Assembly: GCA_031370645.1 (NCBI GenBank)
Contig: JANMQV010000009.1
Coordinates: 2,200-66,199 of the forward strand
Direction of reading: 5' to 3'
Length of the DNA stretch: 64,000 nucleotides
Source: Candidatus Eiseniibacteriota bacterium
Lineage (GTDB): Bacteria > Eisenbacteria > RBG-16-71-46 > SZUA-252
Shown: one piece after another, positions 3,306 to 54,647 of the stretch
Layout: each line of letters begins with the position of its first letter
Position numbering within the stretch: the stretch's first letter is position 1
Notes under the pieces: model-generated
Told to the model about the DNA's origin: nothing
What the model saw: only the letters and a program-made list of their open reading frames with translations
Database searches by the model: none
Position numbers and translations under genes: made by a program

Positions 3306-3308
3306 TCC

Positions 3309-25295: not shown

Positions 25296-25459
25296 GTCTG
25301 GTTTCGTTCCTCGACACTTGGAAGGGGTGACGCGTCTCGCGAGCACGCGCAAGCGGCCCCGGAATTTACAGTTACCCCGGGCGCCGGGAAACACCTTATT
25401 CTATCGAAAATCTCGCTGCGCATGCTTCGGCATTTTCGACGACACAAGGAGACCCGACG

Positions 25460-26854
25460 TTGGGGCGTGACGCGTACAGCGCGCTCGTAGCTGGAGTCCT
25501 CTTCCCGCTCCACGAGAATCTCAAAGGTCACGACACGAACCGCCGGCTCCGCCAGTTGGAGCGAAGCCAGTGGTGGGCCGCCGCCACGCTGGAGGCGGAT
25601 CAACTCGCGCGGCTCCGCACATTCCTCGGAACCATCGGATCGAACGTCGCCTACTATCGCGACCTCTTTCGCCGCTCGGACTTCCAACCCGCCTCGATCC
25701 GAAGCGCCTCCGACCTGGCGCAATTGCCGATCCTCACGAAGAGCACCATCCGCGCCCATCACGCCGCCTTCCTTCGAGCAGGAGCCCGGGGCCTCACCAC
25801 GTACAGCACCGGTGGATCGACCGGCGAGCCGCTCCAGCTCTTCGTGGGACCGGCGCGAATCACGGCCGACGTCGCCCATCGCCGCCGCGCGATGCGGTGG
25901 TGGGGGGTCGACATCGGCGACCCCGAAATCGTTCTGTGGGGGTCCCCGATCGAGGTGACGAGACAAGACCGCGTACGGGAGTTCCGCGACCGACTCTTCC
26001 GGAGCACGCTCCTCTCCGCGGCGGGCATGACGCCGCGGCGCATGGACGAGTACCTGGACACGGTCGTTCGGGTCAGGCCGGCGCAACTGTTTTCACACGC
26101 CTCGGTCCTCTGCGAACTCGCGGCGCATGCGGAGCGAACCGGGCGAGCCCTCACCGGGCTCGGGACGCGCGTGGTGTTTGTCACGTCGGAGGAGCTCTAC
26201 GACTATCAGCGCGTGCAACTCGAGCGCGTCTTCGGGTGCCCCGTCGCGAACGGGTACGGCGGACGCGATGCCGGCTTCATCGCCCAGGAGTGCCCGAAGG
26301 GCGGGATGCACCTGAGCGTCGAGGACATTGTGGTCGAGATCGTGGACGACCGCGGCGCCCCGGTCCCGCGAGGGAGCTCGGGCGAGATTGTCGTGACGCA
26401 CCTTGCGAGCGACGACTTTCCGTTCGTCCGCTACGCGACGGGGGACATCGGCATTCTCCACGACACCCCCTGCGCCTGCGGACGGGGGCTACCGCTCCTG
26501 CGCGAGCTGCATGGCCGCGCCGACGACTTGTTGCTCGCGACGGACGGGTCGCGAGTCCCCGGGCAGATGGTCGTGCACCTGGTGAAGGGGCTTCCCGAGA
26601 TCGAAGCCTTCAAGCTCATCCAGGAGACTCCCGATCTCGTGAGAATTCTGCTCGTCGCGTCGGCGGAAATCGCGGAGGAGGCGAAGTCGTCGATCGTCGC
26701 CGGCGTCCGCGCCCGTTTGGGCGAGGGAATGCGCGTCGAGTTCGAAAAGGTGGAGACGATCCCGCGAGAAGCGTCGGGGAAGTATCGAACCGTCGTGAGC
26801 CGACTCGGGCTCAGTCCCGCGCTGCAGGCGAAGCGCGCCGCTTCCGGTTCCTGA
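25460..26854 (+). CDS. Phenylacetate-CoA ligase-like adenylate-forming enzyme (CapK / coenzyme F390 synthetase family)
   Basis: TYSTGGSTGEP AMP-binding motif with PaaK-like length and layout. TTG start 8 nt after AAGGAG. Confidence 0.7.
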   Translation: MGRDAYSALVAGVLFPLHENLKGHDTNRRLRQLERSQWWAAATLEADQLARLRTFLGTIGSNVAYYRDLFRRSDFQPASIRSASDLAQLPILTKSTIRAHHAAFLRAGARGLTTYSTGGSTGEPLQLFVGPARITADVAHRRRAMRWWGVDIGDPEIVLWGSPIEVTRQDRVREFRDRLFRSTLLSAAGMTPRRMDEYLDTVVRVRPAQLFSHASVLCELAAHAERTGRALTGLGTRVVFVTSEELYDYQRVQLERVFGCPVANGYGGRDAGFIAQECPKGGMHLSVEDIVVEIVDDRGAPVPRGSSGEIVVTHLASDDFPFVRYATGDIGILHDTPCACGRGLPLLRELHGRADDLLLATDGSRVPGQMVVHLVKGLPEIEAFKLIQETPDLVRILLVASAEIAEEAKSSIVAGVRARLGEGMRVEFEKVETIPREASGKYRTVVSRLGLSPALQAKRAASGS

Positions 26855-28022
26855 TTCGTCGTTCCCGCTCCAGCGCGAGTTCCGAGTAGAGCGCGGCGTA
26901 GGCCCGAATCATTCCGGGCATGGAATGCACCGCCTCCATGCGCGCCCGTCCCGCCGCCCCCATCCGCTCTCGGAGCGCGGCGTCATTTAGCAGTTCCAGG
27001 ATTCGTCTCGCCATCGCCTCTGGTTCGACGGCCGGTACGAGGTAGCCGGTCACGCCGTCTCCGACGAGGTCCGGATTTCCGCCGACCGCCGTCGCCACCA
27101 CGGGCCTGCCCGCCGCCATGGCCTCCAAAATCGTATTCGACATTCCTTCGTAGCGTGACGAGTTGACGTAGACGTCGCACGTCCGAAGGAGCCGCGGGAT
27201 GTCGTGCCTCACGCCGGCGAAACGGACGGCTGCGCCGACGCCGAGCGACTCCGCCTCCCGGTCGAGCCCGCCGCGCGGATTCTCCGGGCTCCCTTGCCCG
27301 ATCAGAAGAAGCCTCGCCCGCGGCTCCGTGCGATGAACGAGGGCGAAGGCGCGAAGCAGGGTCGCGTGGTCCTTGACCGAGCGGAAGCCGCCGGTGTTCA
27401 TGACGACTCGGTCCTCTGGCGTCAGCCCCAGCTCGCCGCGCAACGCTTCCGAACGGTCGTCGCCACCGAAGGCATCCAGGTCGACCCCGTTCGGAATCCA
27501 GCGGACGCGATCCGCGGGGACCTTCCAGTCCCGAACCACTTCCTCCGCGAGGTCCCGTGACACGGCACAGACACGGTCGGCGCCCATCGCCAGGAGGCGG
27601 CTCCCGAGCACGCGCTTCGGATGGCGAAGTGTGTCGTCCTTGCCGTGCTCTCCGTGGATGACGATCGGCACTCCGGCGAGACGGGCGGCGCAGACGGCGT
27701 AGAGGAAGGTCGACCAATTGTGGGAGTGGACGACGTCGATCTCCTGCTCCCGGAAGAGTGCCGCCAGCCGTCCGATCACGCTCCAATTCCGCCCCGACTC
27801 CTTCCGCATCTCGAAGACGGCAACGTCGTGCGAGAGGAGCGCTTTCACGTCCTCGCGCTGATGGCGCATACAAACGATGATCGAGCGAAACCGATCAGGA
27901 TCGAGTCGGTTCACGAGCTTCACCACGCCGTACTCCATGCCGGCGAGCGCCAGCACGTCGACGATATGCGCGATTCGAAGGGGAGACGCCGGAGTAGCGA
28001 CGGGCGTTCGCGGGGCGTGCAT
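26811..28022 (-). CDS. GT4 (group 1) glycosyltransferase
   Basis: LRIAHIVDVLALAGMEYGVVKLVNRL N-terminus, an EGMSNTILEAMAAGRPVVATAVGGNPDLV motif. Convergent 44-nt overlap with the upstream ligase. Confidence 0.75.
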   Translation of the reverse strand: MHAPRTPVATPASPLRIAHIVDVLALAGMEYGVVKLVNRLDPDRFRSIIVCMRHQREDVKALLSHDVAVFEMRKESGRNWSVIGRLAALFREQEIDVVHSHNWSTFLYAVCAARLAGVPIVIHGEHGKDDTLRHPKRVLGSRLLAMGADRVCAVSRDLAEEVVRDWKVPADRVRWIPNGVDLDAFGGDDRSEALRGELGLTPEDRVVMNTGGFRSVKDHATLLRAFALVHRTEPRARLLLIGQGSPENPRGGLDREAESLGVGAAVRFAGVRHDIPRLLRTCDVYVNSSRYEGMSNTILEAMAAGRPVVATAVGGNPDLVGDGVTGYLVPAVEPEAMARRILELLNDAALRERMGAAGRARMEAVHSMPGMIRAYAALYSELALERERRIRNRKRRASPAARD

Positions 28023-28269
28023 GGCTGCAGAGTACCAACCGGCGCTCGTGCCTGTCACCCCGCGCCTCCTTGGGGCGCTTGGATGTCTCGCCGGCGCGTG
28101 AGAGCGGCAACTTTCCCGTGGACTTTCCATCGGTCGGAATCTAGCCTCATCGGCTCATGAAGGATTCGCGCGAGTTCCTTCCGCGTTGCGCTCCGTCACC
28201 GATCCGACAGACTTCCATGGCCTCTCCCACAATCCATCTCGCCTTCGCGGCGCCGATCCCGGAGCAGCC

Positions 28270-30165
28270 ATGAGCGGCATTTGCGGCGTCCTGTCCAGGC
28301 CCGGCGGTCCCTCGATCGCTCCCGCGGGCATCGACGCGATGTGCCGGCGGCTTTCCTTGGGAGACGCGGGAGTCGATCCTGTTGTCTGCACGACCCTCTC
28401 GCTCGGCCCCGTGGCGCTCGGCGCTTCCACGTTCGGGCGCCACCGGGGCGGAGTCGGTAGCCTCCAGCACGAGGGGCACACCGTCGCGATCGCGGTGCTC
28501 GGCAGTTTCTACGATCAAGACGCTCCGCGCGCGGCGATCCCCGAACACTTCCTGGCGCGCTACCTGGAGGAGGGAATTCGATTCGTCGAAGGAGTTCGCG
28601 GCGAGGCGACGTTCGCGGTCTGGGACGGTCGGACCGAGGAGCTTCACGTCACGACCGATCGCTTCCGGTTTCACTCCATGTTCACGAGCGACCGGCCCGA
28701 CCAATTCGCGTTCGCCTCCCGGATCGGCGCACTCCTCGCGTCGCCGATCCCGCTTGAGGCCACGCTTCGCCCCGAGGCGATCGTGGATGCCGTCGGTTCT
28801 TCGATCATTCCGACGCCCCACACCGCCTACCGGGAAGTATTCAAATTGCCGCCCGCGCACCGGCTCACGCACCGGGCGGGAAAGATCTCGCTCGCGCCCT
28901 ATTGGGAAATCGACTTTCGAAATCCACGACGGGCGAGCGAAGCGGAGCTGGCGGAAGATCTTCGCGCGCGGTTCTCCGAGGCGATGGCGCGGCGCGTCCG
29001 GGTCGACGGGGAGCCCGAACGGCTCGGCTCGTTCCTGAGCGGCGGCGTCGATAGCAGCACCGTGACGGGGGTCCTTCAACAGGTCTCCGGTCGCCGCATG
29101 AAGAGCTTCTCGATCGGATTCGGGGAAGCGCGCTACAACGAGATCTCGTTCGCTCGTCTCGCCGCCGACGCCCTGAAGTCCGACTACCACGAATACTTCG
29201 TCGTGCCTCGCGACGTCTCCGAAGCGCTACCGACCATTCTCGCGTCGTTCGACGAGCCGTACGCGAATGCTTCGGCGATTCCGACCTATTTCTGCGCGCG
29301 GCTCGCGCGGAAGCACGGCGTGGACGTCCTTTACGCCGGGGACGGAGGGGACGAACTCTTCGCGGGAAACGAACGCTACGCCACGCAGAAACTCTTCGAG
29401 TACTACCGTCGCGTTCCGCGCTGGCTCGGTCGCGGGTTCGTCGAACCGACGGTCGGGGCGCTCGCCGATCTTCTGAAACTCGATCTCTTCGTCAAAGGTC
29501 GAAAGTACATCCGGAGGGCGCTTATCCCGCCGGCGAAGCGGCTGACGTCGTACGATTTCTTCCGGCTCGTCCCGCTCGAGGGGTTCCTGACCCCCGAGTT
29601 CATGGAGCACGTCGGGAAGCAGTACGAGCCCGGGGCCGCGCTGGAGGCACTCCACGGCCGCGCCACCGGGCCGACCGAGTTGGATCGCCAGCTCTACGTC
29701 GATCTCCATCTCACCATCTCCGACAACGACATCGTCAAGGTGACGCGCATGACGGAGGCAGCCGGGGTGACGGTGCGATTTCCGTTCTTGGATCAGGCGT
29801 TCGCCGAGTTTGCCATGACCGTGCCGGCCGGCGTCAAGATGCGGGGCCGAACGCTACGAACCTTCTTCAAGGGGGCGTACGCGGACATCCTTCCGCCGGA
29901 AATCCGGTCGAAGTCGAAACACGGATTCGGGCTCCCGATCGCGGAGTGGCTCCGGACCGATCCGGCGCTCGCGGAGGTGATGAACGATGCGCTCCTGAGC
30001 CCGCGTTCGCTCGCGCGCGGCTATTTCCGACAGGAGGCCCTCGCGGAGCTGCTGAAGCGCCATCGCGAGGACCCCACGTCCTTCTACGGGACCACGCTCT
30101 GGAATCTGGTCATCCTCGAGTTGTGGTTGCGGCGCCAAGAGGAGGAGGGAAGGAACCGGGCGTAA
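28270..30165 (+). CDS. Asparagine synthase (glutamine-hydrolysing)-like amidotransferase, exosortase A system-associated paralog 2
   Basis: MSGICGV N-terminal nucleophile, an SGGVDSS PP-loop and the AsnB C-terminal domain. Confidence 0.85.
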   Translation: MSGICGVLSRPGGPSIAPAGIDAMCRRLSLGDAGVDPVVCTTLSLGPVALGASTFGRHRGGVGSLQHEGHTVAIAVLGSFYDQDAPRAAIPEHFLARYLEEGIRFVEGVRGEATFAVWDGRTEELHVTTDRFRFHSMFTSDRPDQFAFASRIGALLASPIPLEATLRPEAIVDAVGSSIIPTPHTAYREVFKLPPAHRLTHRAGKISLAPYWEIDFRNPRRASEAELAEDLRARFSEAMARRVRVDGEPERLGSFLSGGVDSSTVTGVLQQVSGRRMKSFSIGFGEARYNEISFARLAADALKSDYHEYFVVPRDVSEALPTILASFDEPYANASAIPTYFCARLARKHGVDVLYAGDGGDELFAGNERYATQKLFEYYRRVPRWLGRGFVEPTVGALADLLKLDLFVKGRKYIRRALIPPAKRLTSYDFFRLVPLEGFLTPEFMEHVGKQYEPGAALEALHGRATGPTELDRQLYVDLHLTISDNDIVKVTRMTEAAGVTVRFPFLDQAFAEFAMTVPAGVKMRGRTLRTFFKGAYADILPPEIRSKSKHGFGLPIAEWLRTDPALAEVMNDALLSPRSLARGYFRQEALAELLKRHREDPTSFYGTTLWNLVILELWLRRQEEEGRNRA

Positions 30166-30188
30166 CGGCCGGAACCTTCGCCGGCGAC

Positions 30189-31262
30189 ATGGGCCCTACT
30201 CCGCCACGCTTCCGGGCGCGCCTCTTCGCGTTTGTCGCGCGAATCCTCCATGCCTGCGGCCTCGTCACCCTCGCGCGCCCCCTCGTGAACCGCACGCGGC
30301 TTGTGCTGGGCGCACCGGGGCGGGCGCGGCTCCCGCGTCTCGTCGAGCGTCCCGGGCGAAACGCGCAGATCCTCATCTACCACCGCGTGAACGACGAGGG
30401 TGATCCCTACTTCGGCGGTATTTCCCCCGCTCTCTTCGAGCGACAGATGGCCTACGTCTCGTCACGCTTCACCGTCCTCCCCCTGGAGGAACTTGTGGCG
30501 GCCCTTGGGGCGCGGGCGGTTCCTCCGAATGCCATCGCCGTCACACTCGACGACGGGTACCGCGACAACTACCTCGAGGCGTTTCCCGTCTTCCAGCGCC
30601 ATTCCATCCCCGCGACGATCTTTCTGGCGACGTCGGCCGTCGGGTCGGAGCAGACGCTCTGGCACGACGACGTCTTCTCGGCTTTTCGGGAAACGAAGTC
30701 GCCGACTCTCGACGCGTTCGGTCCGCGCTCGATCGGGGGTTCGCTCGCGAGCGTCGGCGATCGACTACACGTGATGCGCCAAGTCCTCGAAACTGTTCGC
30801 GCCGTTCCGGACGACGAACGCGCCGAAGCCGTCGTGAAACTGCGCGAGGCTCTGAACGTGGGGCCATCCCGCCCCGTTCCGGGTCTCATGCTCACGTGGG
30901 ACGAGGCGCGTGAGATGAGCCGCGGTGGAATCCGCTTCGGCTCGCACACGGTTTCACACCCCATCCTCTCGCGAGTCGATCGTGACCGCGCTCGGCGGGA
31001 GCTCTCGGATTCGAAAGCGGTGATCGAGGAGCGCCTGGGACTTCCGGTGGTCGGATTCGCCTATCCCAACGGGACGCCCGCCGATTTTCGCTCCGAGACG
31101 AAGACCCTCCTGGACGAGTGCGGGTACCGATTCGCCGTGACGACCACCCCAGGCGCGAACGACGAAACGACCGACCGTTTCGAGCTCCGGCGGGGCACCC
31201 CGTGGGACGACGACCTATTTGCATTCGGGGCACGGTTGCTCTACAATAAGTGGCAGTCATGA
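30189..31262 (+). CDS. Polysaccharide deacetylase (NodB-homology domain) family protein
   Basis: ILIYHRV, TLDDGYRDNY, ATIFL and LMLTWDEAREM...GSHTVSHP NodB motifs. Start at the Met 24 nt after the asnB stop. Confidence 0.7.
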   Translation: MGPTPPRFRARLFAFVARILHACGLVTLARPLVNRTRLVLGAPGRARLPRLVERPGRNAQILIYHRVNDEGDPYFGGISPALFERQMAYVSSRFTVLPLEELVAALGARAVPPNAIAVTLDDGYRDNYLEAFPVFQRHSIPATIFLATSAVGSEQTLWHDDVFSAFRETKSPTLDAFGPRSIGGSLASVGDRLHVMRQVLETVRAVPDDERAEAVVKLREALNVGPSRPVPGLMLTWDEAREMSRGGIRFGSHTVSHPILSRVDRDRARRELSDSKAVIEERLGLPVVGFAYPNGTPADFRSETKTLLDECGYRFAVTTTPGANDETTDRFELRRGTPWDDDLFAFGARLLYNKWQS

Positions 31263-31342
31263 ACCAACCTACGCGAGTTTGGCCCGCCGTCGAGCGACTC
31301 CGTCTCGACCCAGTCTTCGCATCCTGAACCGGATCGAATGCG

Positions 31343-32377
31343 GTGCCGCTGAAGATCCGGCCGGCGGACGTACACGCGGACCGAAACGTGATCATCGACT
31401 GCCTCCGCCGCTTCCTGTCGCCCGATGCGGATGCCGGTCGTTACGACTGGCTCTACCTCCAGAGTCCGCACGGACCGGCGGTCGCGTGGATCGCCTTCGA
31501 TGAAACCAGCGGCGAAACGATCGGCGTCGCAAGCGCCTTTCCGCGACGCGCGCTCCTGGACGACTCGGAAACCGTCGCCTGGGTGCTGGGCGACTTCTGC
31601 ATCCACGACCAATACCGCACACTCGGCCCCGCGCTTCAGCTCAATCGCGCCTGCCTCGACGCGGTGGGCCGCGGCGACGCCGCCTTCTGCTACGATTTTC
31701 CGAGTCAGAGCATGATGGCCGTCTATCGCCGCCTGCGCATCGCCCCGCTAGGAAACGTCGTGCGCCACGCTCGCGTCCTTCGGTGGGGGCGCCGGCTCGG
31801 GCAGGCGATTTCGGTCCCCGGCCTTCGCGAGGGAGTGACCGCAATCGCATCGATCGCCGACCTGGCGCCGCCATCGCGCGCGCGGGCACCCGAAGGACTT
31901 GCCGTCGGTCTCCAGACCGAAGCGTGCGGGAGCGAATTCGATGAACTCGACCGCGCGCGACGCGGACGGACGCGAGTCCACCTCGAGCGCTCGGCGGCGC
32001 ATTTGAATTGGCGCTACCGAGGGAAGCCGGGATCGCGCCACGAACTCCTGGCCGCGCGAGACTCCCGAGGGCTACGCGGCTATGCCGTCGTTCTTTCGGA
32101 AGGCTCCGAGGCCTCCATTTCCGACCTGGCCGCTCTCGATGAAGAGGCGGCCCAGGCGCTCCTCGATGAGAGCGCCGTCCATTCGTGGCGGCGGGGAGCG
32201 GTCACGCTGTCGATGTCGGTGTTCGCCTCGCACGCGATCGCACCCGTCTTGCAGCGCAGCGGATTTCGTCCCCGAGAGGAGCGCCCGGTGATCGCGCATG
32301 CCGGTCCCGATCTCGGGCGGCGCCCCGCCTTGCGCGAAGGCGACGTTCCGCTCACGGACGGAGACCGGGAGAGTTGA
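31343..32377 (+). CDS. GNAT/FemAB-like acyltransferase-fold protein (exosortase-locus associated, hypothetical)
   Basis: About 340 aa with weak GNAT-like core (VLGDFCIHDQYR...GPAL). Its position between the deacetylase and ACP matches the XrtA-associated cassette. GTG start. Confidence 0.5.
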   Translation: MPLKIRPADVHADRNVIIDCLRRFLSPDADAGRYDWLYLQSPHGPAVAWIAFDETSGETIGVASAFPRRALLDDSETVAWVLGDFCIHDQYRTLGPALQLNRACLDAVGRGDAAFCYDFPSQSMMAVYRRLRIAPLGNVVRHARVLRWGRRLGQAISVPGLREGVTAIASIADLAPPSRARAPEGLAVGLQTEACGSEFDELDRARRGRTRVHLERSAAHLNWRYRGKPGSRHELLAARDSRGLRGYAVVLSEGSEASISDLAALDEEAAQALLDESAVHSWRRGAVTLSMSVFASHAIAPVLQRSGFRPREERPVIAHAGPDLGRRPALREGDVPLTDGDRES

Positions 32378-32395
32378 TCCCGGCCCGAATCGCTC

Positions 32396-32662
32396 ATGAA
32401 CGCTGACACCACGACCGGACGGATCCGGCACTTCATCCTGAACCAGTTTCCCTTGGCCCGCCAACGCGCCATCGGCGATGACGACCCGCTGCTCCGAACG
32501 GGGATCCTCGATTCGCTCGGCATTCTCGAGGTCGTCGCTTTTATCGAGTCCGAGTTCCAGATCACGGTCGCCGACGAGGAGCTCGTTGCGGAGAGTTTCG
32601 AGTCGATCGCCACGATGGCTCGGTTCGTGGACGGGAAACGCCAGCGCGAGGTCGGCGCGTAG
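32396..32662 (+). CDS. Acyl carrier protein
   Basis: 88 aa. The LDSLGILEVVAFIE motif carries the phosphopantetheine-attachment serine (DSL). Confidence 0.6.
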   Translation: MNADTTTGRIRHFILNQFPLARQRAIGDDDPLLRTGILDSLGILEVVAFIESEFQITVADEELVAESFESIATMARFVDGKRQREVGA

Positions 32663-32675
32663 CCGCCGGGACACC

Positions 32676-34247
32676 GTGGACTTCTTGATCCACCACATGC
32701 TGCGGTCGAGCGCCGCCCGCCTCCCGGAGAAAGAGGCGCTGGTGTGCGGCGATCAGCGCCTTTCGTACGCCGAGGTGTGGGCGCGCGTCCGTGGCCTCGC
32801 CGCGGGAATCCGCCGCGCCGGGATCGAGCGCTCCGATCGCGTCGGGATCTTCCTCGACGCCTCCGTCGAGCAGTCGATCTCGATTTTCGCCGTCTCGCGC
32901 GCCGAGTGCGTCTTCGTGCCGATCAGCGGCGTCTTGCTTCAAGATCAGGTGGCGCACATCGTCCGCGATTGCCGCATGCGATGCCTCATCGTCTCCGCGT
33001 CGAAACTGGAGATCGTGGTGCCGGTACTCTCGTCTATTCCGACGCTGGAGCGGCTCATCGTGGTCGGGGGAAGCGCGCCCGCGGGGACGCCGCTTCCGGC
33101 CGACTCGTACGAGGCGCTCTGCGGCGACGTGCCGGCCTCCGACGCCCCGGAAGCATCGATCGAGAAGGATCTCGCGGCGATCCTCTACACGTCCGGGTCG
33201 ACCGGGAAGCCGAAGGGCGTCATGTTGAGCCACGGGCAGGTGATGGCCGGCGCCACGATCGTCTCGACCTATCTCGAGATCACGGAATCGGAGCGGATCC
33301 TCGCGGTCCTCCCGTTCAGTTTCGATGCCGGCATGAACCAGATCATGACGGCGTTCCAGCGCGGCGCGACAATCGTCCTGAAGCCGTTCGTCTTCGCCCG
33401 CGAGCTGGTGACGGCGCTGAAGAACGAACGGATCACGGGCCTCGCCGGCGTGCCGACGCTCTGGGGTCTCCTCGCCCAGCCGAGCTCGTCGCTCAGCAAG
33501 GGGACCTACCCGCATCTTCGCTACATCACGAACACCGGCGGCGTCATGCCGCAGGACGTCCTCGCCACGCTTCGGGCGGCGCTCCCGACGACGAAGGTCT
33601 TCCTCATGTACGGGCTGACCGAAGCGTTTCGCTCGACCTATCTGCCTCCCTCCGAACTCGACAAGCGACCGACCTCGATGGGGAAGGCGATTCCCGATAC
33701 CGAAATCCTGGTGATCGACGAGAATGGCCGGCGGTGCGGGCCCGGCGAAATCGGCGAACTGGTCCATCGCGGCCCGACGGTGTCGATGGGGTATTGGGGA
33801 CAGCCGGAACTGACGGCGCGCGTGCTCCGACCCCATCCATTCCTTCCGCCGGAGCTCGGCGACACGGAACGGGTCTGCTATTCCGGCGATCTCGTCAAGA
33901 TGGACGAGGACGGCTTCCTCTACTTCATCGGGCGGCGAGACAATATGATCAAGTCGTCCGGATATCGAATCAGTCCGACCGAGGTCGAAGAGGTGCTCTT
34001 CCAGAGCGGAATGGTCCAACTTGCCGCTGTCATCGGCGTCCCGGATCCGATGCTTGGCGCGATCGTCGTCGCCTTCGTCGTGCCGAGCGAAGGAGGGTCG
34101 TTCGACCCCGCTGCGCTCCAGGCCTACTGCTCCGCGAAGATGCCGCCCTACATGTTGCCGAAGACAATCGAGGTCCTCGACCACTTGCCGAAGACGAGCA
34201 GCGGCAAGGTGGACTATCCCGCGCTGCGCCGTCGAACGGGGAGCTGA
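32676..34247 (+). CDS. Acyl-CoA ligase (AMP-forming), exosortase A-associated family (TIGR03098-like)
   Basis: YTSGSTGKPKGV AMP-binding motif, a YGLTE motif, and a C-terminal SSGKVDY lysine motif. GTG start at 32676 after the ACP stop. Confidence 0.8.
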   Translation: MDFLIHHMLRSSAARLPEKEALVCGDQRLSYAEVWARVRGLAAGIRRAGIERSDRVGIFLDASVEQSISIFAVSRAECVFVPISGVLLQDQVAHIVRDCRMRCLIVSASKLEIVVPVLSSIPTLERLIVVGGSAPAGTPLPADSYEALCGDVPASDAPEASIEKDLAAILYTSGSTGKPKGVMLSHGQVMAGATIVSTYLEITESERILAVLPFSFDAGMNQIMTAFQRGATIVLKPFVFARELVTALKNERITGLAGVPTLWGLLAQPSSSLSKGTYPHLRYITNTGGVMPQDVLATLRAALPTTKVFLMYGLTEAFRSTYLPPSELDKRPTSMGKAIPDTEILVIDENGRRCGPGEIGELVHRGPTVSMGYWGQPELTARVLRPHPFLPPELGDTERVCYSGDLVKMDEDGFLYFIGRRDNMIKSSGYRISPTEVEEVLFQSGMVQLAAVIGVPDPMLGAIVVAFVVPSEGGSFDPAALQAYCSAKMPPYMLPKTIEVLDHLPKTSSGKVDYPALRRRTGS

Positions 34248-34249
34248 AC

Positions 34250-35554
34250 GTGGACCACGTCCGAGAGCTCGTGGCACGGCACTTCGGCGAACGCGGCGGA
34301 GAGCTCTTGGTCGGCGGCATGGCGATTCGTGAATTGGCGGAGAAGTTCGGTACGCCGCTCTTCATCTACGACGCCGCCGCCATCGATCGGCAGATCGAGA
34401 ATCTCCGCTCCACCTATCCCGCGCCATTCGAGATCTACTACTCAGTCAAGGCGAACCCCTGTCCCGCGGTGGTCCGCCACTTCGTGGAGCGCGGCCTCGG
34501 GCTCGAGATCGCCTCCGGCGGGGAATTCCACCAGGCGATTCGGGCGGGATGCGCGGCCGATCGAATTCTCTTCGCGGGTCCCGGGAAGAGCGAGCGGGAA
34601 CTCGCCTACGTCCTCGAACACGGAATCGGCGAGATCCATCTCGAGTCGATCCTCGAGGGGAAGCGGGTCGCGTCGATCAGCAAGCGATTGGGAATTCGAA
34701 CGCGAGTCGCGCTTCGAGTCAATCCGGGCGCCGAAGCGCAGGGGGGCGCCATGCGAATGGGCGGGAAGCCGGCCCCGTTTGGCGTGGACGAAGAGCTCCT
34801 CGACGACGTCCTCAATCATTTGCTGGCCGAGTCGTCGCTCGATCTCCAGGGAATCCACCTCTACGCGGGGACGCAGATCCTCGACGACCGGATCCTCGTG
34901 ACGCAGTACCGTCGAGGAATCGAGATCGCCCGGCGCGTTGCCGACCGGATGGGCCGCCCGCTCCGAACGATCGATTTCGGGGGCGGGCTCGGCATTCCCT
35001 ACTTCCCGAGCGAGTCGCCGCTGCCCCTCGCGCCGCTTGCGGAGGGTCTCGCGGTGATGGTGAAGGAGCTCCAGCCGGATGCTCGATTCGCGGGCACGCG
35101 TTTCATCATCGAACCGGGCCGCTATCTCGTCGGCGAAGCGGGGATCTACGTCACGCGCGTGAACGACATGAAGGTCTCGCGCGGGAAGACGTTTCTCGTC
35201 GTCGACGGCGGAATGAATCACCACTTGGCGGCGTCGGGAAATCTCGGCCAGGTCATCAAACGGAATTTCCCGGCCGCGATCTTGAATCGTCTTCAGGGCG
35301 ATTCAACGCTGAAGGCCGACGTTGTCGGCCCGCTCTGCACGCCGCTCGACGTCATTGCCCGCGACCTTCCGCTTCCCGCCGCCGAGGTAGGGGATCTGTT
35401 CGGAATCTTCCAGTCGGGAGCCTACGGCCGCTCGGCGAGCCCACTCGGATTCCTGAGCCAGCCTACGCCCGCGGAAGTGCTGGTCCGAAACGGGGAGGCG
35501 ATCCTGGCGCGTCGCGCCGGAACGTTCGAAGAGACCCTTGGAGACGTCCCCTGA
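34250..35554 (+). CDS. Pyridoxal-dependent decarboxylase, exosortase A system-associated (Orn/DAP/Arg decarboxylase fold-III family, TIGR03099-like)
   Basis: FEIYYSVKANPCPAVV (PLP lysine), a GGGLGIPYF motif, and EPGRYLVGEAG. It is the 3' third of ORF 32744..35554. GTG start 3 nt after the ligase stop. Confidence 0.8.
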   Translation: MDHVRELVARHFGERGGELLVGGMAIRELAEKFGTPLFIYDAAAIDRQIENLRSTYPAPFEIYYSVKANPCPAVVRHFVERGLGLEIASGGEFHQAIRAGCAADRILFAGPGKSERELAYVLEHGIGEIHLESILEGKRVASISKRLGIRTRVALRVNPGAEAQGGAMRMGGKPAPFGVDEELLDDVLNHLLAESSLDLQGIHLYAGTQILDDRILVTQYRRGIEIARRVADRMGRPLRTIDFGGGLGIPYFPSESPLPLAPLAEGLAVMVKELQPDARFAGTRFIIEPGRYLVGEAGIYVTRVNDMKVSRGKTFLVVDGGMNHHLAASGNLGQVIKRNFPAAILNRLQGDSTLKADVVGPLCTPLDVIARDLPLPAAEVGDLFGIFQSGAYGRSASPLGFLSQPTPAEVLVRNGEAILARRAGTFEETLGDVP

Positions 35555-35600
35555 CCGCTGGAGGGATCGTGCCGGGGCAAACGGGTTGAAGCAAGTTCTC

Positions 35601-36830
35601 ATGATCGCCTATCACTATCCTCCGCTTCGGGGGAGTAGCGGAATTCAGCGGACGCTTGCGTTCTCGCGCGATCTTCGCGAATTCGGATGGCAGCCGATCG
35701 TCCTGTCGGCCAACCCGCGCGCCTATCCCGGAACCGGCGCCGACCAGCTGCGCGATATCCCTGCGGATGTTCCCGTCTACCGCCCCTTCGCACTCGATAC
35801 GTCGCGGCACCTGTCGATCCGTGGCGCCTATCCGCAGGCGCTCGCGCTCCCCGATCGGTGGTCGAGCTGGCTCCTCGGCGCGGTGCCCGCGGGGTGGGGC
35901 ATCATTCGCCGGCATCGGCCCGACGTCATCTGGTCGACCTATCCGATCGCCACGGCCCACTTGATCGGTCTCTGGCTGCAGCGACTCTCCGGGCTCCCCT
36001 GGGTCGCCGATTTTCGCGACTCCATGACGGAGGCCAACTTTCCGCCGGACCCCACGCTTCGCCGCGTCCGCCAAGACCTCGAACGGAAAACCGTGGAGCG
36101 CGCGTCGCGATCCGTGTTCACGACGCCCGGCGCCCGGCGTATGTATGCGGAGCGCTACCCGAACCTCTCGGCGGAGCGATGGACCGTGATCCCGAACGGA
36201 TACGACGAGGGGCCGTTTCACGACGCGGAGGGCGCCGCCGGACCGACGCGGGCCGAGGGAGCGCCGACCGTGCTCGTCCACAGCGGGCTCCTCTATCCCA
36301 ACGAGCGAGATCCCCGCGCGTTTTTCGATGCGCTGGCGTCGCTACGGCGCCAAGGGGCGGTCTCGTCGAGCACGTTGCAGGTCGTCCTCCGGGCAACCGG
36401 CTTCGACGATCCGTACCGTCCCATGCTGCGCGAGCGGGGAATCGAAGATCTCGTGCGTCTCGAGCCGCCGCTCGGTTACCGCGCCGCGCTCGCCGAGATG
36501 CTCGCCGCCGACGGGCTTCTCCTCTTCCAGGCCGCGAACTGCAATCATCAGATCCCGGCGAAGGTCTACGAGTACCTTCGGGCGCGACGACCGATCTTCG
36601 CCATGACCGACTCCGGCGGCGACACCGCGCGCGTCCTCCGAGAAGCGGGAGTCGACAGCATCGTCCCGCTCGATTCCGCGGAGAAGATCGCTCAGGGTCT
36701 GTCGACCTTCCTCGACGCGCTCCGCCGGAAGGCCGCAGCGGTGCCCGGGCCCGAAGTGGTCGACCGCTATTCTCGTCGCGCGCGGGCACGCGAGCTCGCG
36801 GCGCTTCTCGATTCGATCACCGGAGGCTGA
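35601..36830 (+). CDS. Glycosyltransferase (GT4-like), exosortase-locus associated
   Basis: MIAYHYPPLRGSSGIQRTLAFSRDL N-terminus, with a GT-B C-terminal region. Confidence 0.65.
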   Translation: MIAYHYPPLRGSSGIQRTLAFSRDLREFGWQPIVLSANPRAYPGTGADQLRDIPADVPVYRPFALDTSRHLSIRGAYPQALALPDRWSSWLLGAVPAGWGIIRRHRPDVIWSTYPIATAHLIGLWLQRLSGLPWVADFRDSMTEANFPPDPTLRRVRQDLERKTVERASRSVFTTPGARRMYAERYPNLSAERWTVIPNGYDEGPFHDAEGAAGPTRAEGAPTVLVHSGLLYPNERDPRAFFDALASLRRQGAVSSSTLQVVLRATGFDDPYRPMLRERGIEDLVRLEPPLGYRAALAEMLAADGLLLFQAANCNHQIPAKVYEYLRARRPIFAMTDSGGDTARVLREAGVDSIVPLDSAEKIAQGLSTFLDALRRKAAAVPGPEVVDRYSRRARARELAALLDSITGG

Positions 36831-36843
36831 CCGAGGAGCATTC

Positions 36844-38157
36844 ATGCGCGACTATCTCGTGCTGGCCATCATCCTTCTCGGGGCGCCGCTCGCCCTCTTC
36901 CGGCCGTATCTCGGCATCCTCTGGTGGTGCTGGATCAGCTACATGAATCCCCACCGCCTTACGTGGGGGATCGCCTACAACTTCCCGGCCGCCATGGTGA
37001 TCGGCGGCGCCACGCTGGCGGGGCTCCTCTTCACCAAGGATCGAACGAAGGTCCCGTTCGAGCGAGAGACGATCCTTCTCATCATTCTCTACATCCTGTT
37101 CGTCGTGACGACGAACTTCGCCCTCGCTCCTATTTCAGCGTGGAGCCGCTTCACGGAAATCTCGAAGATTCTCCTGATGACGGTCGCCACGATGGCGCTC
37201 GTCACCTCGCGGCATCGGTTCCGGACGTTTCTTTTGGTGATCGCCTTGTCGGTCGGATTCTTCGGCGCGAAGGGAGGCCTCTTCAGCCTTCGGGGCGGCG
37301 GCGTGGACCGAATCTACGGCCCCCCGGGCTCGTTCCTCGAGGACAACAATGATCTGGCGCTCGCCATCGTCATGGTGCTTCCGCTGCTCTTCTACCTGAC
37401 CCGCGACGAACCTCGAGCCTGGTTCCGGTGGGTGTTGCGAGGGACGGGCCTTCTTTCGATTCTCACCGTCATCTTCACCTACTCGCGCGGAGGGTTCGTC
37501 GGGCTCGCGGCTATCGCGGGGTGGTCGCTTCTGAAGTCGAAGAAGAAGTTTTTGGCGGTGATTCTGCTCGCGCTCGCGGTCGGAGTCGGATTCTTCTTCG
37601 TGCCGACGCAGTGGGTGGATCGAATGCAGACGATCGGCGACGTCGCGGACGAGTCGGCGCAAGGGCGGATCAACGCCTGGATGTTCGCCTACAATCTCGC
37701 TTCCGCCCGGCTCTTCGGCGGAGGCTTCGATGTCTGGTCGCCCGACCTCTTTCTCAGATACGCGCCGAATCCGACGGATTTTCACGCCGCTCACAGCATC
37801 TATTTCGAAATGCTCGGCGAGCAGGGCTTCATCGGGCTCGGACTCTTCCTGGCCATCCTCGCCTCTTCGATCTTCAGTTTGCAGGGACTACGTCGCTACC
37901 GACACTGGCCGGAGATGCGGTGGGTATCGGACTACGCCGACATGCTGCAGATCGCCTTGATCGGCTACGTCACGAGCGGGGCGTTTCTCGGGCGCGCGAA
38001 CTTCGACCTCTACTACCACTTGATCGCCGCCACGATCATCTTGAAAGCGCTCGCGAAACGGGAGGCGTGGGCTCTCTCGCAGGCCGCCGCGGAGCCGGAG
38101 CCCGCGTCCGAGATTCCCGCGCTGTCCCAGCCCGTGCCGGGACTACAACCGGGGTGA
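36844..38157 (+). CDS. O-antigen ligase-like / putative O-glycosylation ligase, exosortase A system-associated (TIGR03097-like, Wzy_C family)
   Basis: About 10-12 TM helices and a Wzy_C-type loop (FTYSRGGFVGLAAIAGWSLL...HSIYFEMLGEQG). GAGGAG RBS. Confidence 0.75.
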   Translation: MRDYLVLAIILLGAPLALFRPYLGILWWCWISYMNPHRLTWGIAYNFPAAMVIGGATLAGLLFTKDRTKVPFERETILLIILYILFVVTTNFALAPISAWSRFTEISKILLMTVATMALVTSRHRFRTFLLVIALSVGFFGAKGGLFSLRGGGVDRIYGPPGSFLEDNNDLALAIVMVLPLLFYLTRDEPRAWFRWVLRGTGLLSILTVIFTYSRGGFVGLAAIAGWSLLKSKKKFLAVILLALAVGVGFFFVPTQWVDRMQTIGDVADESAQGRINAWMFAYNLASARLFGGGFDVWSPDLFLRYAPNPTDFHAAHSIYFEMLGEQGFIGLGLFLAILASSIFSLQGLRRYRHWPEMRWVSDYADMLQIALIGYVTSGAFLGRANFDLYYHLIAATIILKALAKREAWALSQAAAEPEPASEIPALSQPVPGLQPG

Positions 38158-38198
38158 GCAGCACCGGCGACAAACCGAGCGCCGGCTGAGGAAGGGAA

Positions 38199-39659
38199 TT
38201 ACGGAGCGCGGAGGTTGAGGGGAACGCCGGGAGGTGTCGTATCGGCTCCCGTCGCGACCGACGACTTGAGAGCAGCCTGCAAGCGCCAGCCGGGATTCAC
38301 GCCCTGTCCCGCATAGGCCCCCCGGTAGCGGAAGTCGGCCTTCGCGTCCGCATTGAAGTCGCGGTCGTAGGCGACGTTGGTGGAAAAGGGTGAAAGATCG
38401 AGCGGCGTCCCGCTACAGCCGCTGCACGAAATCGCCGGGTAGAAGTCCATCTGCCCGAGGATCTCCGAGGGCGCCGTGAAGTAGGGGGAACCGTCCGAGG
38501 GGGTACCGATCACGTTGCTCCCGGCCGTCGGCACCGAACCGCCGAGTCCTGCCCCGCCGGTCACGATGAGATTCCCGCGCACGATTCCACCCTCACGCGG
38601 CGCGGTCGAGTACCGAATCCCGCCGCCGGAAACGCTGTAGACCGTGTTGTTGTAGACGTTCGTGAGCTTCAGCGGGCCGTTGTGATCGGTAAAGACCACC
38701 GACATCTGTCCGGCACCGGACGAAACGAACACGTTGTCGTGAACCGTCATTCGGCCCGTCGCCTGGAAAAGCGCTTCATTCGGGTTCTTGTAGAAGAAAT
38801 TGCCGTAGATCTCGTAGAGGTCCTGGCTTCCCATTCCGGTGTCGGGGAAGGGATCGACGAGCAGATTGGGCCGCACCGCGACCACCTGCCCCGGCGCCCA
38901 GTTGTTCTTCTCCTTGATGAAGACGTTGTTCCGGATGATCGTCCGATGAGGCTCCGGCGGGAGCGCGGTGGCCCACGGCTGCGTTCCGTAGGCGAGTTGA
39001 TTCTTGATCTCCATGTTGTAGCCGATGCTGTTGAGGAACAGATTCCCCTCGATCACGCCCGCGACGAACGGCTGCGTCCCGTCGGAGTTCCCGAGATAGA
39101 TGCCGGTTCCCGCCTCGATGATCTTGTTGCCGCGAATCGTCCAGTTCCAAGCGGGGGACTTGGTGGAAATCGCGACCGTCCCCTGACTGTTGTCCTGGCC
39201 GATCAGAGTGCAATTCTCGATGAGAATGTCGTGGGTTGGGTTTCCCTTCGCGTTGATGCCGTCGATGGCATCCAGACCCGCGCTGTCGATCGTGACGTTC
39301 CGTAGCACGACGTACGATGTGCCGCCCAGCTGAACCGTGTTGCAGCAGGTCGACGCCGTCGTGATGGTCGCGGCAGGGCCCGACGCGGGCCCCGTGATGA
39401 CGATCCACGCCGAAGGGGTGCCATTCTTTCCATCCAGAACGAGGCGATCCGGGTAATTGCCGGAAGGGAGGTAGAGCGTGTCGCCGGGCGCGAGCGATCC
39501 GACGAGCGTCCGATAGTAGCCTGCTTGGCCGGAGACCGCTCCCGGCGTCGCGACGAGGGTTCGAGACTCCGCCATCGAAGGAAGGCTTACGCCCACCACG
39601 AGGAGCGCCAGAGCAACCGCGGCGCGAACCGGCGATGCCAATTCCACTCGACGATTCAT
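38199..39659 (-). CDS. Secreted right-handed parallel beta-helix repeat protein (pectate-lyase fold; candidate polysaccharide lyase/epimerase)
   Basis: Signal peptide (MNRRVELASPVRAAVALALLVVGVSLPSMA) and repeated NxxIxxN/GxxIxxN beta-helix rungs (VTIDSAGLDAIDGI, ILIENCTLIGQDNS, WTIRGNKIIEAGTGIYLGNS, IRNNVFI, TVHDNVFV). Confidence 0.6.
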   Translation of the reverse strand: MNRRVELASPVRAAVALALLVVGVSLPSMAESRTLVATPGAVSGQAGYYRTLVGSLAPGDTLYLPSGNYPDRLVLDGKNGTPSAWIVITGPASGPAATITTASTCCNTVQLGGTSYVVLRNVTIDSAGLDAIDGINAKGNPTHDILIENCTLIGQDNSQGTVAISTKSPAWNWTIRGNKIIEAGTGIYLGNSDGTQPFVAGVIEGNLFLNSIGYNMEIKNQLAYGTQPWATALPPEPHRTIIRNNVFIKEKNNWAPGQVVAVRPNLLVDPFPDTGMGSQDLYEIYGNFFYKNPNEALFQATGRMTVHDNVFVSSGAGQMSVVFTDHNGPLKLTNVYNNTVYSVSGGGIRYSTAPREGGIVRGNLIVTGGAGLGGSVPTAGSNVIGTPSDGSPYFTAPSEILGQMDFYPAISCSGCSGTPLDLSPFSTNVAYDRDFNADAKADFRYRGAYAGQGVNPGWRLQAALKSSVATGADTTPPGVPLNLRAP

Positions 39660-40083
39660 GTCGTTCGCTCCGGGCTCGGCCGCACGAGAGTTAGGCGTAG
39701 GGAGTTGGATCCCGATGACCATCTCGCGCGTTGCGTGTTTGGGGTCGATCAGAACCGAGTACCCCGTTTTGGGCGAACTCGTTCCCGAATCCACCCGGAA
39801 TTTAGCACGATTCGGGCCAAGTCGCGCTCCCGTATGGAATCGAGCACTTGGCGCCGAATCATTCCCGATTCATCGACAGAACGCGTGTCGCGGCTTGCAC
39901 TCCGCGAGGGCGAAATCGCGAAGCGCGGTGAAAACCGAGCCGGTCGTTCCGCATCCAATGGTTCTACCCCTTCCGGCGGCAGGAAAAGGTGTGCCGTCTG
40001 GCCGGGGGACTAACGTCCCGGCAGGAAACGTGTTAGGCCGATCGATGCGCTCCCTGCAAACGCCGGGAGAAGCGGAGTGGCGT

Positions 40084-40099
40084 TGGTGCGAAATTTGCG
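40084..40099 (+). promoter_or_regulatory. Candidate sigma54 promoter TGGTGCG-N4-TTGCG, about 55 nt upstream of the Fn3/CTD gene and exosortase
   Basis: Correct GG-N10-GC spacing, with 2 mismatches in the -24 box. It lies in a 495-bp divergent intergenic region. Confidence 0.3.
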
Positions 40100-40154
40100 T
40101 CATTCTTCGACGATCCTACCCTGTATGGGTTTAGCGTCCGATGCGGAGGCCTTG

Positions 40155-42733: not shown

Positions 42734-43145
42734 TTCCTCCCGCTTCACCTCCTCACCCCCAAACGATTCTCGTTCGATCGCGTGCAGCATGAGCGACCGC
42801 CGCGTGCGGATCGCGCCGTGCATCGTGCGCGTTCGGACACGCCTCGCGCGCTAGCTGCTTACCGACGACCGTGTTTGCAGCGTGCAGGGTGCACCGCGCG
42901 TACTCCGCGCCATGGCACATTTCGTGCAGACACTGGCGCGCGGTGGGATGGGGGTCCTGCCAAACATCAATCGAGTCCCATGAACGCATGCGACCCGCCC
43001 TCTCGGGTGGGGAGCAACACCGTGGGCAATCGGACCCAGGCGAACGCTCGCGTTCGGCTGGGTACAGAACTGCATCTCGAGGAGGATCTCCATGCGCCGT
43101 TGCCTACCTGTTCCTCACCACCCCCTTCGCGGCCCTCGAATCGCG

Positions 43146-53204: not shown

Positions 53205-54633
<1,429 letters not shown>

Positions 54634-54647
<14 letters not shown>

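Follow-up and report, generated by a model that had tools for sequence, protein, structure and literature searches.

The 64,000-nucleotide window analysed here, from a Candidatus Eiseniibacteriota bacterium (contig JANMQV010000009.1), is an exosortase A (XrtA) locus, and within it lies the run of eight plus-strand genes with which this study is concerned. Six of these, at 28270-35554, encode in order an asparagine-synthetase-family protein (AsnB2), a polysaccharide deacetylase (NodB2), a protein of 344 residues (P344), a stand-alone carrier protein, an adenylating ligase and a fold-III pyridoxal phosphate (PLP)-dependent decarboxylase, and they are followed by genes for a GT4-type glycosyltransferase and a Wzy_C-type membrane protein. 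We propose, with a probability of roughly one half, that this cassette acts as a module for the aminoacylation, by way of its carrier protein, of a sugar in the XrtA-linked polysaccharide; each step of this scheme is read from homology and gene context. Decarboxylation of the butirosin and vicenistatin type, in which the substrate stays on its carrier, is likely to be used here to aminoacylate a glycan beside a sortase-like system. The cassette itself is a real and conserved feature and is correctly described at the gene level in a preliminary description of this stretch, whose broad notion that an acyl or aminoacyl group is transferred to a sugar we also judge to be right.

The decarboxylase

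Among all sequences in the Protein Data Bank (PDB), the best match to the decarboxylase is BtrK (7ru7/2j66), which in butirosin biosynthesis is the L-glutamyl-[BtrI acyl-carrier protein] decarboxylase, at 38% identity over 418 residues (~287-294 bits), whereas the best diaminopimelate decarboxylase (LysA) reaches ~203-210 bits and ornithine, lysine and arginine decarboxylases score far lower. BtrK itself gives only 177 bits against the same LysA. The preference for BtrK over LysA holds in 78/78 decarboxylase orthologues drawn from related loci, with median scores of 284 and 190 bits respectively. When the motifs are aligned, the family reads DGGMxHHLAASGNLGQ where BtrK has DGGMHHH-AAS and LysA has DAGMNDLIRPSxxY, GPLCTPLD where BtrK has CTPED and LysA has CETGD, and SASPxxFLSHPxP where BtrK has SFSPVHFLGHPTP and LysA has MSSxYNxRPR; a fourth segment, MRMGGKPAPFGxDE in the family and IKMGGVPRQFGMDE in BtrK, is not shared by LysA. 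These derived motifs that the decarboxylase has in common with BtrK are conserved in the 78 orthologues.

At the LysA motif positions the Arg is replaced by Ala, the Tyr by Lys and CETGD by CTPLD, while the PLP lysine (SVKANP), the glycine loop and EPGR are all retained. The Arg and Tyr of the LysA DLIRPxLY motif are presumably the residues that hold the distal carboxylate of diaminopimelate, and a substrate with a thioester at that end would be consistent with their loss. The reaction of BtrK is of this kind, converting glutamyl-S-BtrI to 4-aminobutyryl-S-BtrI (PMC7857480). With an enzyme nearer to BtrK than to the fold-III enzymes that act on free substrates, the LysA Arg/Tyr motif lost, and genes for a carrier and a loading enzyme alongside, the decarboxylase appears to be BtrK-like rather than LysA-like, and we propose that it acts on a carrier-bound amino acid. 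The public names of its homologues, where given, are 'diaminopimelate decarboxylase' or 'type III PLP-dependent enzyme'; in this family, which has at least ~8000 database matches, the first of these labels is probably a misannotation.

The ligase and the carrier protein

The best PDB matches of the carrier protein are peptidyl, aminoacyl and D-alanyl carrier proteins, and the serine of its DSLG motif is invariant in 69 orthologues. The ligase has all of the ANL core motifs, and its best single-domain PDB matches, at ~180-200 bits, are headed by a feruloyl-CoA synthetase (203 bits) and include adenylation (A) domains of non-ribosomal peptide synthetases as well as the stand-alone beta-aminoacyl-acyl carrier protein ligases HitB, IdnL1 and VinN (~188 bits for VinN). 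A score of 323 bits against the linear gramicidin synthetase LgrA, which hinted at a glycine-type A domain, was rejected, since it adds together the matches to two separate A domains (133 + 180 bits) and so carries no information on the specificity of the ligase.

The pocket segments of the ligase are conserved at most positions across 67 orthologues, reading SFDaGlNQ, GVPtxW, RYITNtGG and LMYGLTEAF--RSTyLPP (capitals mark a residue found in at least 90% of orthologues and lower case one found in at least 60%). The enzyme keeps the aspartate of FD(A)G, which is the residue that binds the substrate amino group in A domains, together with SSGKVD. Its beta13-beta14 loop is 2 residues shorter than those of GrsA and of LgrA module 2, and within this shortened loop an Arg-Ser pair is conserved in at least 90% of the 67 orthologues. 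VinN treats 3-methylaspartate as a beta-amino acid, activating it at the side-chain carboxylate, and a shortened loop with K330/R331 is key to this recognition (PMC11253843). Taken together, the kept aspartate and the Arg-Ser loop favour a ligase substrate with an amino group and a second carboxylate, without giving its identity. The ligase thus looks like an amino-acid adenylation enzyme rather than a fatty-acid or generic carboxylate ligase, and probably serves to charge the carrier protein with an amino acid. The preliminary description had a carboxylate activated on the carrier; we keep activation and loading in our reading, and the pocket aspartate and the PDB matches suggest that the acid is an amino acid rather than a generic carboxylate. 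Candidates would be glutamate, giving a 4-aminobutyryl group, aspartate, giving a beta-alanyl group, and perhaps also diaminopimelate, giving a lysyl group.

Conservation of the module

The scan of related loci took one genome per species and comprised 222 relatives, of which the best 80 loci are used for the counts given here; positional counts consider only loci with enough flanking sequence, and their denominators (67, 68 and 62) vary accordingly. These 80 loci span Eisenbacteria, Acidobacteriota, Nitrospirota (including the cultured Nitrospira moscoviensis, whose locus L062 has the complete cassette), Gemmatimonadota, Rokubacteria, Cyanobacteria, Planctomycetota, Chloroflexota and Alphaproteobacteria, and the closest relatives are Candidatus Eisenbacteria metagenome-assembled genomes, in which the decarboxylase is 82-85% identical. 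The ligase gene lies upstream of the decarboxylase gene in 65/67 loci and the carrier gene does so in 61/67; P344 is found upstream of the decarboxylase, and of the carrier, in 41 of the 67, and the GT4 gene downstream in 35/68. Copies of NodB2 and AsnB2 are accessory, accompanying this core in 14/62 and 7/62 loci respectively. The arrangement of the module is not a matter of chance.

A GNAT-type gene stands beside the core in 64/80 loci, and most of the others are truncated contigs. Genes within the module that remained unassigned fall into three clusters: a PF13480 FemAB/VimA-type acetyltransferase (23 loci), placed between the carrier and the ligase or just after the decarboxylase; a weakly GNAT-like family (19 loci); and a DegT-type aminotransferase (9 loci). 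The second of these occurs in cyanobacteria, planctomycetes and alphaproteobacteria and is only tentatively a GNAT homologue (hhalign E = 8.5e-4, with PF00583 below its cut-off). One variant, JGI locus L082, combines Wzy_C, deacetylase, AsnB and carrier genes with a pair of alpha/beta hydrolase genes and this GT4, and its decarboxylase and ligase are encoded on the other strand. From the conserved order and these counts, the invariant core is the carrier protein, ligase and decarboxylase, usually with the GT4, and the transferase is interchangeable.

Three Acidobacteriaceae loci (L032, 12846-17277; L036, 12823-17250; L069, 12930-17371, minus strand) also encode, a few kb downstream of the main module and on the strand opposite to it, a second and more distant decarboxylase and ligase (39-42% and 36-37% identity respectively), which suggests a paralogous system.

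P344, the glycosyltransferase, AsnB2 and NodB2

Sequence searches of the PDB with P344 and with the GT4 gave no matches, so structure prediction was needed for both. The sequence signal of P344 is limited to Acetyltransf_18 (E = 7e-4), and no NCBIfam family, TIGR03019 included, matches it. Its AlphaFold model (predicted local distance difference test score, pLDDT, 92.7) is a tandem GNAT, for which the top Foldseek matches are the Eis-like tandem GNATs 2hv2, 2i00 and 2ozg together with N-myristoyltransferases (template modelling (TM) score 0.6-0.66, E ~1e-15). In the N-terminal GNAT domain the R-x-x-G-x-A pantetheine loop is invariant (R92, G95, A97), and many of the 656 homologues match PF00583 or PF13527. 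Fold and conserved cofactor loop together place P344 in the GNAT superfamily, and we propose that it is the aminoacyl transferase. GNAT enzymes that take acyl-carrier-protein donors include the LuxI-type synthases and OlsB. The label 'GNAT/FemAB-like' given earlier to this protein is thus kept in its first half; a FemAB, TIGR03019 or PF13480 type was rejected, as hhalign against the TIGR03019 protein of the window gave a probability of 0.7%. BLASTP of a PF13480 protein from related loci against that same TIGR03019 protein gave no signal.

The GT4 model (pLDDT 89) has MshA (TM score 0.70), BshA, GlgM and PimA as its top Foldseek matches, which are generic for GT4 enzymes. MshA and BshA are the N-acetylglucosamine (GlcNAc) transferases that start mycothiol and bacillithiol synthesis. 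Identity of the GT4 remains at ~59% as far as Betaproteobacteria (Pseudoduganella/Massilia), and we regard it as a core partner of the module.

AsnB2 retains an intact PP-loop synthetase domain (SGGVDSS) and is 32% identical over its C-terminal ~530 residues to the canonical XrtA-associated amidotransferase encoded elsewhere in the window. Against the family of the latter, TIGR03108, it reaches 277 bits, far below the cut-off of 816.9, in a match that begins only at about residue 95. The class II glutaminase site that members of this family have intact is degenerate in 10/10 AsnB2 orthologues, which are without the N-terminal MCG cysteine, the RLSIxD Arg and motif, the NGEIYN Asn/Glu and the SDTE Asp. 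AsnB2, earlier described as an AsnB-like amidotransferase, is therefore not an ordinary glutamine amidotransferase. It probably activates a carboxylate by adenylation, with some amine in place of the ammonia that would come from glutamine. The PDB matches of NodB2 are CE4 deacetylases, and the CE4 metal-binding and catalytic motifs TLDDG and HTVSH can be read in its translation. TIGR03006, the XrtA system polysaccharide deacetylase family, does not match it; PF01522, the general CE4 family, does, and its best NCBIfam match is PgaB, at only 45 bits.

Organisation of the cassette and its exosortase A setting

The gene run was defined from long open reading frames (ORFs) with high third-position G+C (the window as a whole has 65% G+C) together with NCBIfam and Pfam scans, and an independent public gene call on an identical contig gives the same gene boundaries (Table 1). 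Apart from the GNAT/'FemAB-like' label, gene identities and order are as the preliminary description had them. The gaps from AsnB2 to the Wzy_C gene measure, in order, 23, 80, 18, 13-34, 2, 46 and 13 nt, the 2-nt gap being that between ligase and decarboxylase. The genes are packed tightly, although some of these gaps fall outside the range of 3-24 nt originally given. Terminator and sigma-70 promoter scans of 26500-40200 gave site numbers not above those of shuffled sequence, and a sigma-54 consensus scan gave 19 matches against 11.7 ± 3.3, not clearly above chance and with none upstream of the cassette. It is the tight spacing and conserved order that suggest co-transcription. Apart from the Wzy_C protein, none of the cassette proteins has clear membrane segments, which fits a cytoplasmic chemistry of precursors.

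The 80-nt gap before P344 marks the start of the widely conserved part of the module. The sole sigma-70-like match in 26500-40200 (TTTGCA-18-TACAAT, 31218-31247, plus strand) lies inside the 3' end of the deacetylase gene, before this gap, and one match is what chance would give. Intergenic sigma-54-like -24/-12 elements precede several genes of the locus (9016-9031, 42913-42928 and 6544-6559 on the plus strand; 39804-39819 on the minus strand), and a sigma-54-dependent response regulator is encoded further downstream.

Table 1. Positions within the window of the cassette genes (first eight rows) and of other features; bits are model scores
Feature	Position	Strand	Evidence or remark
AsnB2, asparagine-synthetase family	28270-30165	+	PF00733, 259 bits
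NodB2, CE4 polysaccharide deacetylase	30189-31262	+	PF01522, 78 bits, split match
P344, 344 aa, predicted tandem GNAT	31343-32377	+	AlphaFold model; sequence signal almost nil
Stand-alone carrier protein, 88 aa	32396-32662	+	PF00550
Adenylating ligase	32676-34247 (GTG start) or 32697-34247 (ATG, public gene call)	+	TIGR03098
Fold-III PLP decarboxylase	34250-35554	+	TIGR03099 best family
GT-B (GT4-type) glycosyltransferase	35601-36830	+	PF13579 and PF13439 on N-terminal domain
Wzy_C/DUF5935 membrane protein	36844-38157	+	TIGR03097, PF19358, PF04932
Exosortase A fused to EpsI domain (XrtA-EpsI)	41198-42733	+	TIGR03109, 288 bits (cut-off 208); TIGR02914, 99 bits (cut-off 43)
PEP-CTERM protein	46244-46972	+	C-terminus ends ...STVPEPASLLLLAPGLAGLLIRRKK; found by direct reading of C-termini
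Canonical TIGR03108 amidotransferase	23370-25394	-	1050 bits; intact MCG glutaminase start
Canonical TIGR03019 FemAB-family protein	4246-5319	+	NCBIfam
Canonical TIGR03006 deacetylase	45044-45976	+	NCBIfam
Type-IX-style tail proteins and PorV/PorQ-family protein (a set, not assigned one by one)	40077-41198; 43969-44934; 13521-16574; 48316-50127	+; +; -; +	
Nucleotide-sugar C6 dehydrogenase and TviC-like 4-epimerase	1977-4256	+	Best specific matches of the dehydrogenase: UDP-ManNAc dehydrogenase, TviB
LmbE/BshB1-like deacetylase	10920-11600	+	52 bits, below cut-off
L-2-hydroxyglutarate oxidase-like protein	18912-20192	-	533 bits (cut-off 299)
PaaK/coenzyme-F390-synthetase-type adenylating enzyme	25460-26854	+	DVU_1553 family, 138 bits
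Sigma-54-dependent response regulator	53205-54647		
DISARM DrmD-like SNF2 helicase, fragment	63269-63979	-	148 bits, far below cut-off

The XrtA context that had been assumed for these genes is confirmed by the XrtA-EpsI gene, 5.6 kb downstream of the ligase-decarboxylase pair, whose product is a candidate user of whatever the cassette makes. Further genes of the locus encode chain-length and tyrosine-kinase proteins, TviB/TviC-like amino-uronic-acid enzymes, stp1/stp2-type glycosyltransferases, a priming transferase and a sigma-54 two-component pair. Three of the cassette genes belong with catalogued XrtA-associated families, so this is not a new kind of locus. The ligase matches TIGR03098 (acyl-CoA ligase (AMP-forming), exosortase A system-associated) over its full length at 633.5 bits, above the cut-off of 592.35, and the Wzy_C protein, which has many hydrophobic segments, matches TIGR03097 ('putative O-glycosylation ligase, exosortase A system-associated') at 449.8 bits (cut-off 188.1). 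The decarboxylase reaches 462.1 bits against TIGR03099 (pyridoxal-dependent decarboxylase, exosortase A system-associated), a near miss of the cut-off of 478.45 and yet far above its score in any other family, the next being that of LysA. The pairing of TIGR03098 and TIGR03099 as adjacent genes in a region with exosortase A is found here, and the two genes are neighbours in 65/67 related loci.

The 'known XrtA signature' that had been attributed to the whole cassette therefore applies to the ligase, decarboxylase and Wzy_C genes and does not extend to its AsnB, NodB and GNAT genes, which fall below the cut-off of TIGR03108 or do not match TIGR03006 and TIGR03019. These three are extra, divergent genes and not the canonical XrtA markers, for which the window has separate genes; the locus thus holds two parallel AsnB, deacetylase and GNAT-type sets.

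Proposed pathway and its alternatives

Considering these proteins together, we propose the following sequence of events. The ligase would adenylate a dicarboxylic amino acid of the glutamate or aspartate type and attach it by the side-chain carboxylate to the phosphopantetheine arm of the 88-residue carrier. The BtrK-like PLP enzyme would then remove the free alpha-carboxylate on the carrier, leaving an omega-aminoacyl thioester of the 4-aminobutyryl or beta-alanyl type, and the tandem GNAT P344 (or, in the two-hydrolase variant, the pair of hydrolases in its place) would move the aminoacyl group to an acceptor amine or hydroxyl. The likeliest acceptor would be an amine bared by CE4 de-N-acetylation of an amino sugar placed by the MshA/BshA-like GT4. 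AsnB2 would adenylate a carboxylate, for example that of a uronic acid, and couple to it an amine not derived from glutamine to give a substituted amide. The expected product would be a sugar with a free primary amine on a short spacer, comparable to the aminoacylated linking sugar of the Wbp/Vim pathway described below. The acceptor, the order of steps and the roles of AsnB2 and NodB2 are argued by analogy with other systems.

Several observations weigh against this proposal and need to be kept in mind. BtrJ, the enzyme that loads the carrier in butirosin biosynthesis, belongs to the ATP-grasp family and is not an ANL ligase. No protecting-group enzyme is evident in the cassette, and a 4-aminobutyryl thioester would tend to cyclise if not protected, which favours a beta-alanyl group or some other solution that we do not see. 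Our reading of the specificity pocket leans in part on an alignment with GrsA in which the placement of gaps is ambiguous, and it does not choose among the candidate amino acids given above. The decarboxylase also just passes the LysA model TIGR01048, at 302.5 bits against a cut-off of 297.9, although the residues presumed to bind the distal carboxylate are replaced. NodB2 has no strong transmembrane segment, but its N-terminus is borderline hydrophobic, so it may work outside the cytoplasm, in which case the steps would not follow in the order proposed; and both AsnB2 and NodB2 are found with the core in only a small share of loci. Finally, literature searches with the family names, and with exosortase combined with ligase, decarboxylase or carrier protein, found no functional study, and one for aminobutyryl-substituted polysaccharides found nothing relevant. 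The cassette genes are not mentioned in the main text of Haft 2006, and the earlier statement that no product has been assigned agrees with our finding no paper that assigns one to these families.

Of the alternatives, the one that survives best would have two branches. A free amine, lysine or of the cadaverine type, would be made from diaminopimelate or ornithine and amide-linked to a uronic acid by the AsnB-like enzyme, while the ligase and carrier would separately activate an unrelated acid for N-acylation by the GNAT. The glutaminase-dead AsnB2 does need an external amine, TviB/TviC-like amino-uronic-acid enzymes are encoded in the window, and the score against the LysA model could be read in the same sense. 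We nonetheless consider this scheme unlikely, as the ligase and carrier look aminoacyl-type, and the decarboxylase has its nearest PDB match in BtrK and not in a decarboxylase of free substrates, has lost the LysA distal-carboxylate motif and is nearly always encoded beside the carrier and ligase, whereas an AsnB copy is present in so few loci. For the same reasons, the separate branch from free amino acid to amine in the preliminary description is unlikely: the BtrK likeness, the loss of the LysA motif and the conserved adjacency make it most likely that ligase, carrier and decarboxylase form one branch.

The order of events within that one branch could also be reversed, such that free gamma-aminobutyric acid, beta-alanine or another omega-amino acid is made first and then loaded onto the carrier by the ligase for transfer by the GNAT. 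The end product would be identical, the same gene set would suffice and activation of a side chain would not be required. The conserved Arg-Ser in the specificity loop of the ligase suggests, however, a substrate that still has its carboxylate, and the decarboxylase has the carrier-substrate-type motifs of BtrK, which together make this order improbable in our view. We hold it to be more doubtful still that the cassette is a small-molecule or lipid pathway merely sited in this locus, making for example an N-acyl amino acid, an aminolipid head group or a short non-ribosomal product. An A-domain-like ligase with a peptidyl-carrier-like protein is typical of secondary metabolism, and the best NCBIfam match of the carrier is an ornithine-lipid carrier protein, albeit far below cut-off. 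Against this, NCBIfam and Pfam identify no condensation, thioesterase or ketosynthase gene in the cassette, the constant partners are the GT4 and the Wzy_C-type protein, joined in some variants by a deacetylase and an AsnB homologue, and the operon is located between glycosyltransferases and XrtA. That the decarboxylase is simply the lysine-biosynthetic LysA of the organism, present here by chance, as the public names of homologues and the narrow pass of TIGR01048 might suggest, is very improbable indeed given the much higher TIGR03099 score, the replaced Arg and Tyr and a synteny with ligase and carrier kept in 80 loci from many phyla.

Relation to known systems

The proposed aminoacylation module is most readily compared with BtrI/BtrJ/BtrK of butirosin biosynthesis, with which it has in common a small stand-alone carrier, a loading enzyme and a fold-III PLP decarboxylase that is related to BtrK in sequence and in its derived active-site motifs; the acceptor is a sugar amine in both, belonging to the aminoglycoside in butirosin and proposed as such for the cassette. 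They differ in the type of loading enzyme, as noted above, in that no homologue of the BtrO/BtrV hydroxylase, BtrH or BtrG was seen for the cassette, in the use of a tandem GNAT as transferase, and in setting, which here is an exopolysaccharide/exosortase locus rather than an antibiotic cluster. The VinN/VinL/VinO system of vicenistatin, and those of related macrolactam starters, supply the other half of the likeness: a stand-alone ANL enzyme, its shortened specificity loop bearing a basic residue, that attaches an acidic amino acid to a stand-alone carrier through the side-chain carboxylate, as we propose for the cassette. VinN and its relatives are among the best single-domain PDB matches of our ligase, and VinO is, we assume, a PLP decarboxylase that acts on the carrier-bound substrate. 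The cassette differs in being without a polyketide synthase, a VinM-type protecting ligase or a VinK acyltransferase, and has a GNAT and glycosyltransferases as partners for the later steps.

Mycothiol and bacillithiol synthesis follow a similar logic of placing GlcNAc, deacetylating it and acylating the amine with an amino acid, and MshA and BshA are the best fold matches of the GT4 model. MshD is presumably a tandem GNAT like P344, although the best fold matches of P344 are Eis-like proteins. The fold matches in the cassette are generic for GT4 enzymes and tandem GNATs, its deacetylase is of the CE4 and not the LmbE type, its ligase uses a carrier and no thiol chemistry is implied.

At the pathway level, the nearest worked-out parallel is the Wbp/Vim system of type IX secretion. 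There, WbpS (AsnB-type), VimE (CE4), VimA (FemAB-like) and VimF (GT4) build a 2-N-seryl-3-N-acetylglucuronamide, and the amino group of this linking sugar receives the C-terminus of the cargo (PMC7468200). The same study likened the XrtA markers TIGR03019 and TIGR03108 to VimA and WbpS and speculated on an acceptor in the form of an amino-acid-modified sugar (PMC7468200). The cassette resembles this pathway in bringing AsnB-type, CE4 deacetylase, GNAT-type transferase and GT4 classes together beside a sortase-like sorting system, and differs in that three additional genes would supply its donor, an amino acid decarboxylated and bound to a carrier, in that its GNAT is not of the PF13480 type (although the 23 related loci mentioned above do have PF13480 in the module) and in that its AsnB is without a glutaminase site. 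By analogy with these systems, what may be new is that XrtA loci carry a second aminoacyl route, with a carrier protein and on-carrier decarboxylation.

Other features of the locus

Two C-terminal sorting systems are present in one locus, around XrtA and the classical PEP-CTERM protein. Alongside these are three proteins with type-IX-secretion-style C-terminal domains, one of them a Por_Secre_tail match and two being fn3 proteins with the same kind of tail, and a PorV/PorQ-family outer-membrane protein is also encoded near XrtA. The gene at 40077-41198, just upstream of XrtA, keeps its position in the Eisenbacteria loci L002, L003 and L042. Two plus-strand ORFs, at 43092-43979 and 43969-44934, have the same fn3-type repeats (…WTAPGDDG…GRATSY[DE]LRY…) and lie in different frames, with an overlap of 11 nt. 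They may be a tandem pair, or else a single gene broken by a frameshift or by an error in the assembly.

The C6 dehydrogenase and TviC-like 4-epimerase predict N-acetyl amino-uronic acids in the polymer, which would be natural substrates for both of the AsnB-type enzymes. The LmbE/BshB1-like deacetylase, the third type of sugar deacetylase in the locus, lies in a nucleotide-sugar group with RmlC and a glucose-1-phosphate cytidylyltransferase. The L-2-hydroxyglutarate oxidase-like gene is one of a series on the minus strand that also encodes a GT2 glycosyltransferase and a CsaB-like pyruvyl transferase. This is an odd site for a central-metabolism repair enzyme, and a hydroxy-acid substituent might be one explanation. 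A second adenylating enzyme, of the PaaK type, is encoded between the canonical amidotransferase and a glycosyltransferase and is also found in loci L003 and L061. At the end of the window, the DrmD-like fragment adjoins unannotated ORFs (59529-63285) and may mark the edge of a defence island.

Implications

Reading the decarboxylase as BtrK-type leads to a specific prediction, namely an omega-aminoacyl sugar with a mass increment of +85 Da for a 4-aminobutyryl or +71 Da for a beta-alanyl group. A further extension, speculative and on balance doubtful, is that the cassette makes the acceptor for exosortase A: the free amine of an omega-aminoacyl-spacer sugar would attack the XrtA-protein thioester, leaving PEP-CTERM proteins amide-linked to the exopolysaccharide. 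If this is the case, then the same may hold in this organism for attachment of the type-IX-style cargo proteins encoded nearby, and on-carrier decarboxylation would represent a bacterial route to a non-proteinogenic 'linker amine' for protein-glycan attachment. Exosortase A systems are widespread in bacteria of soil, sediment and wastewater, where they matter for the formation of flocs and biofilms.

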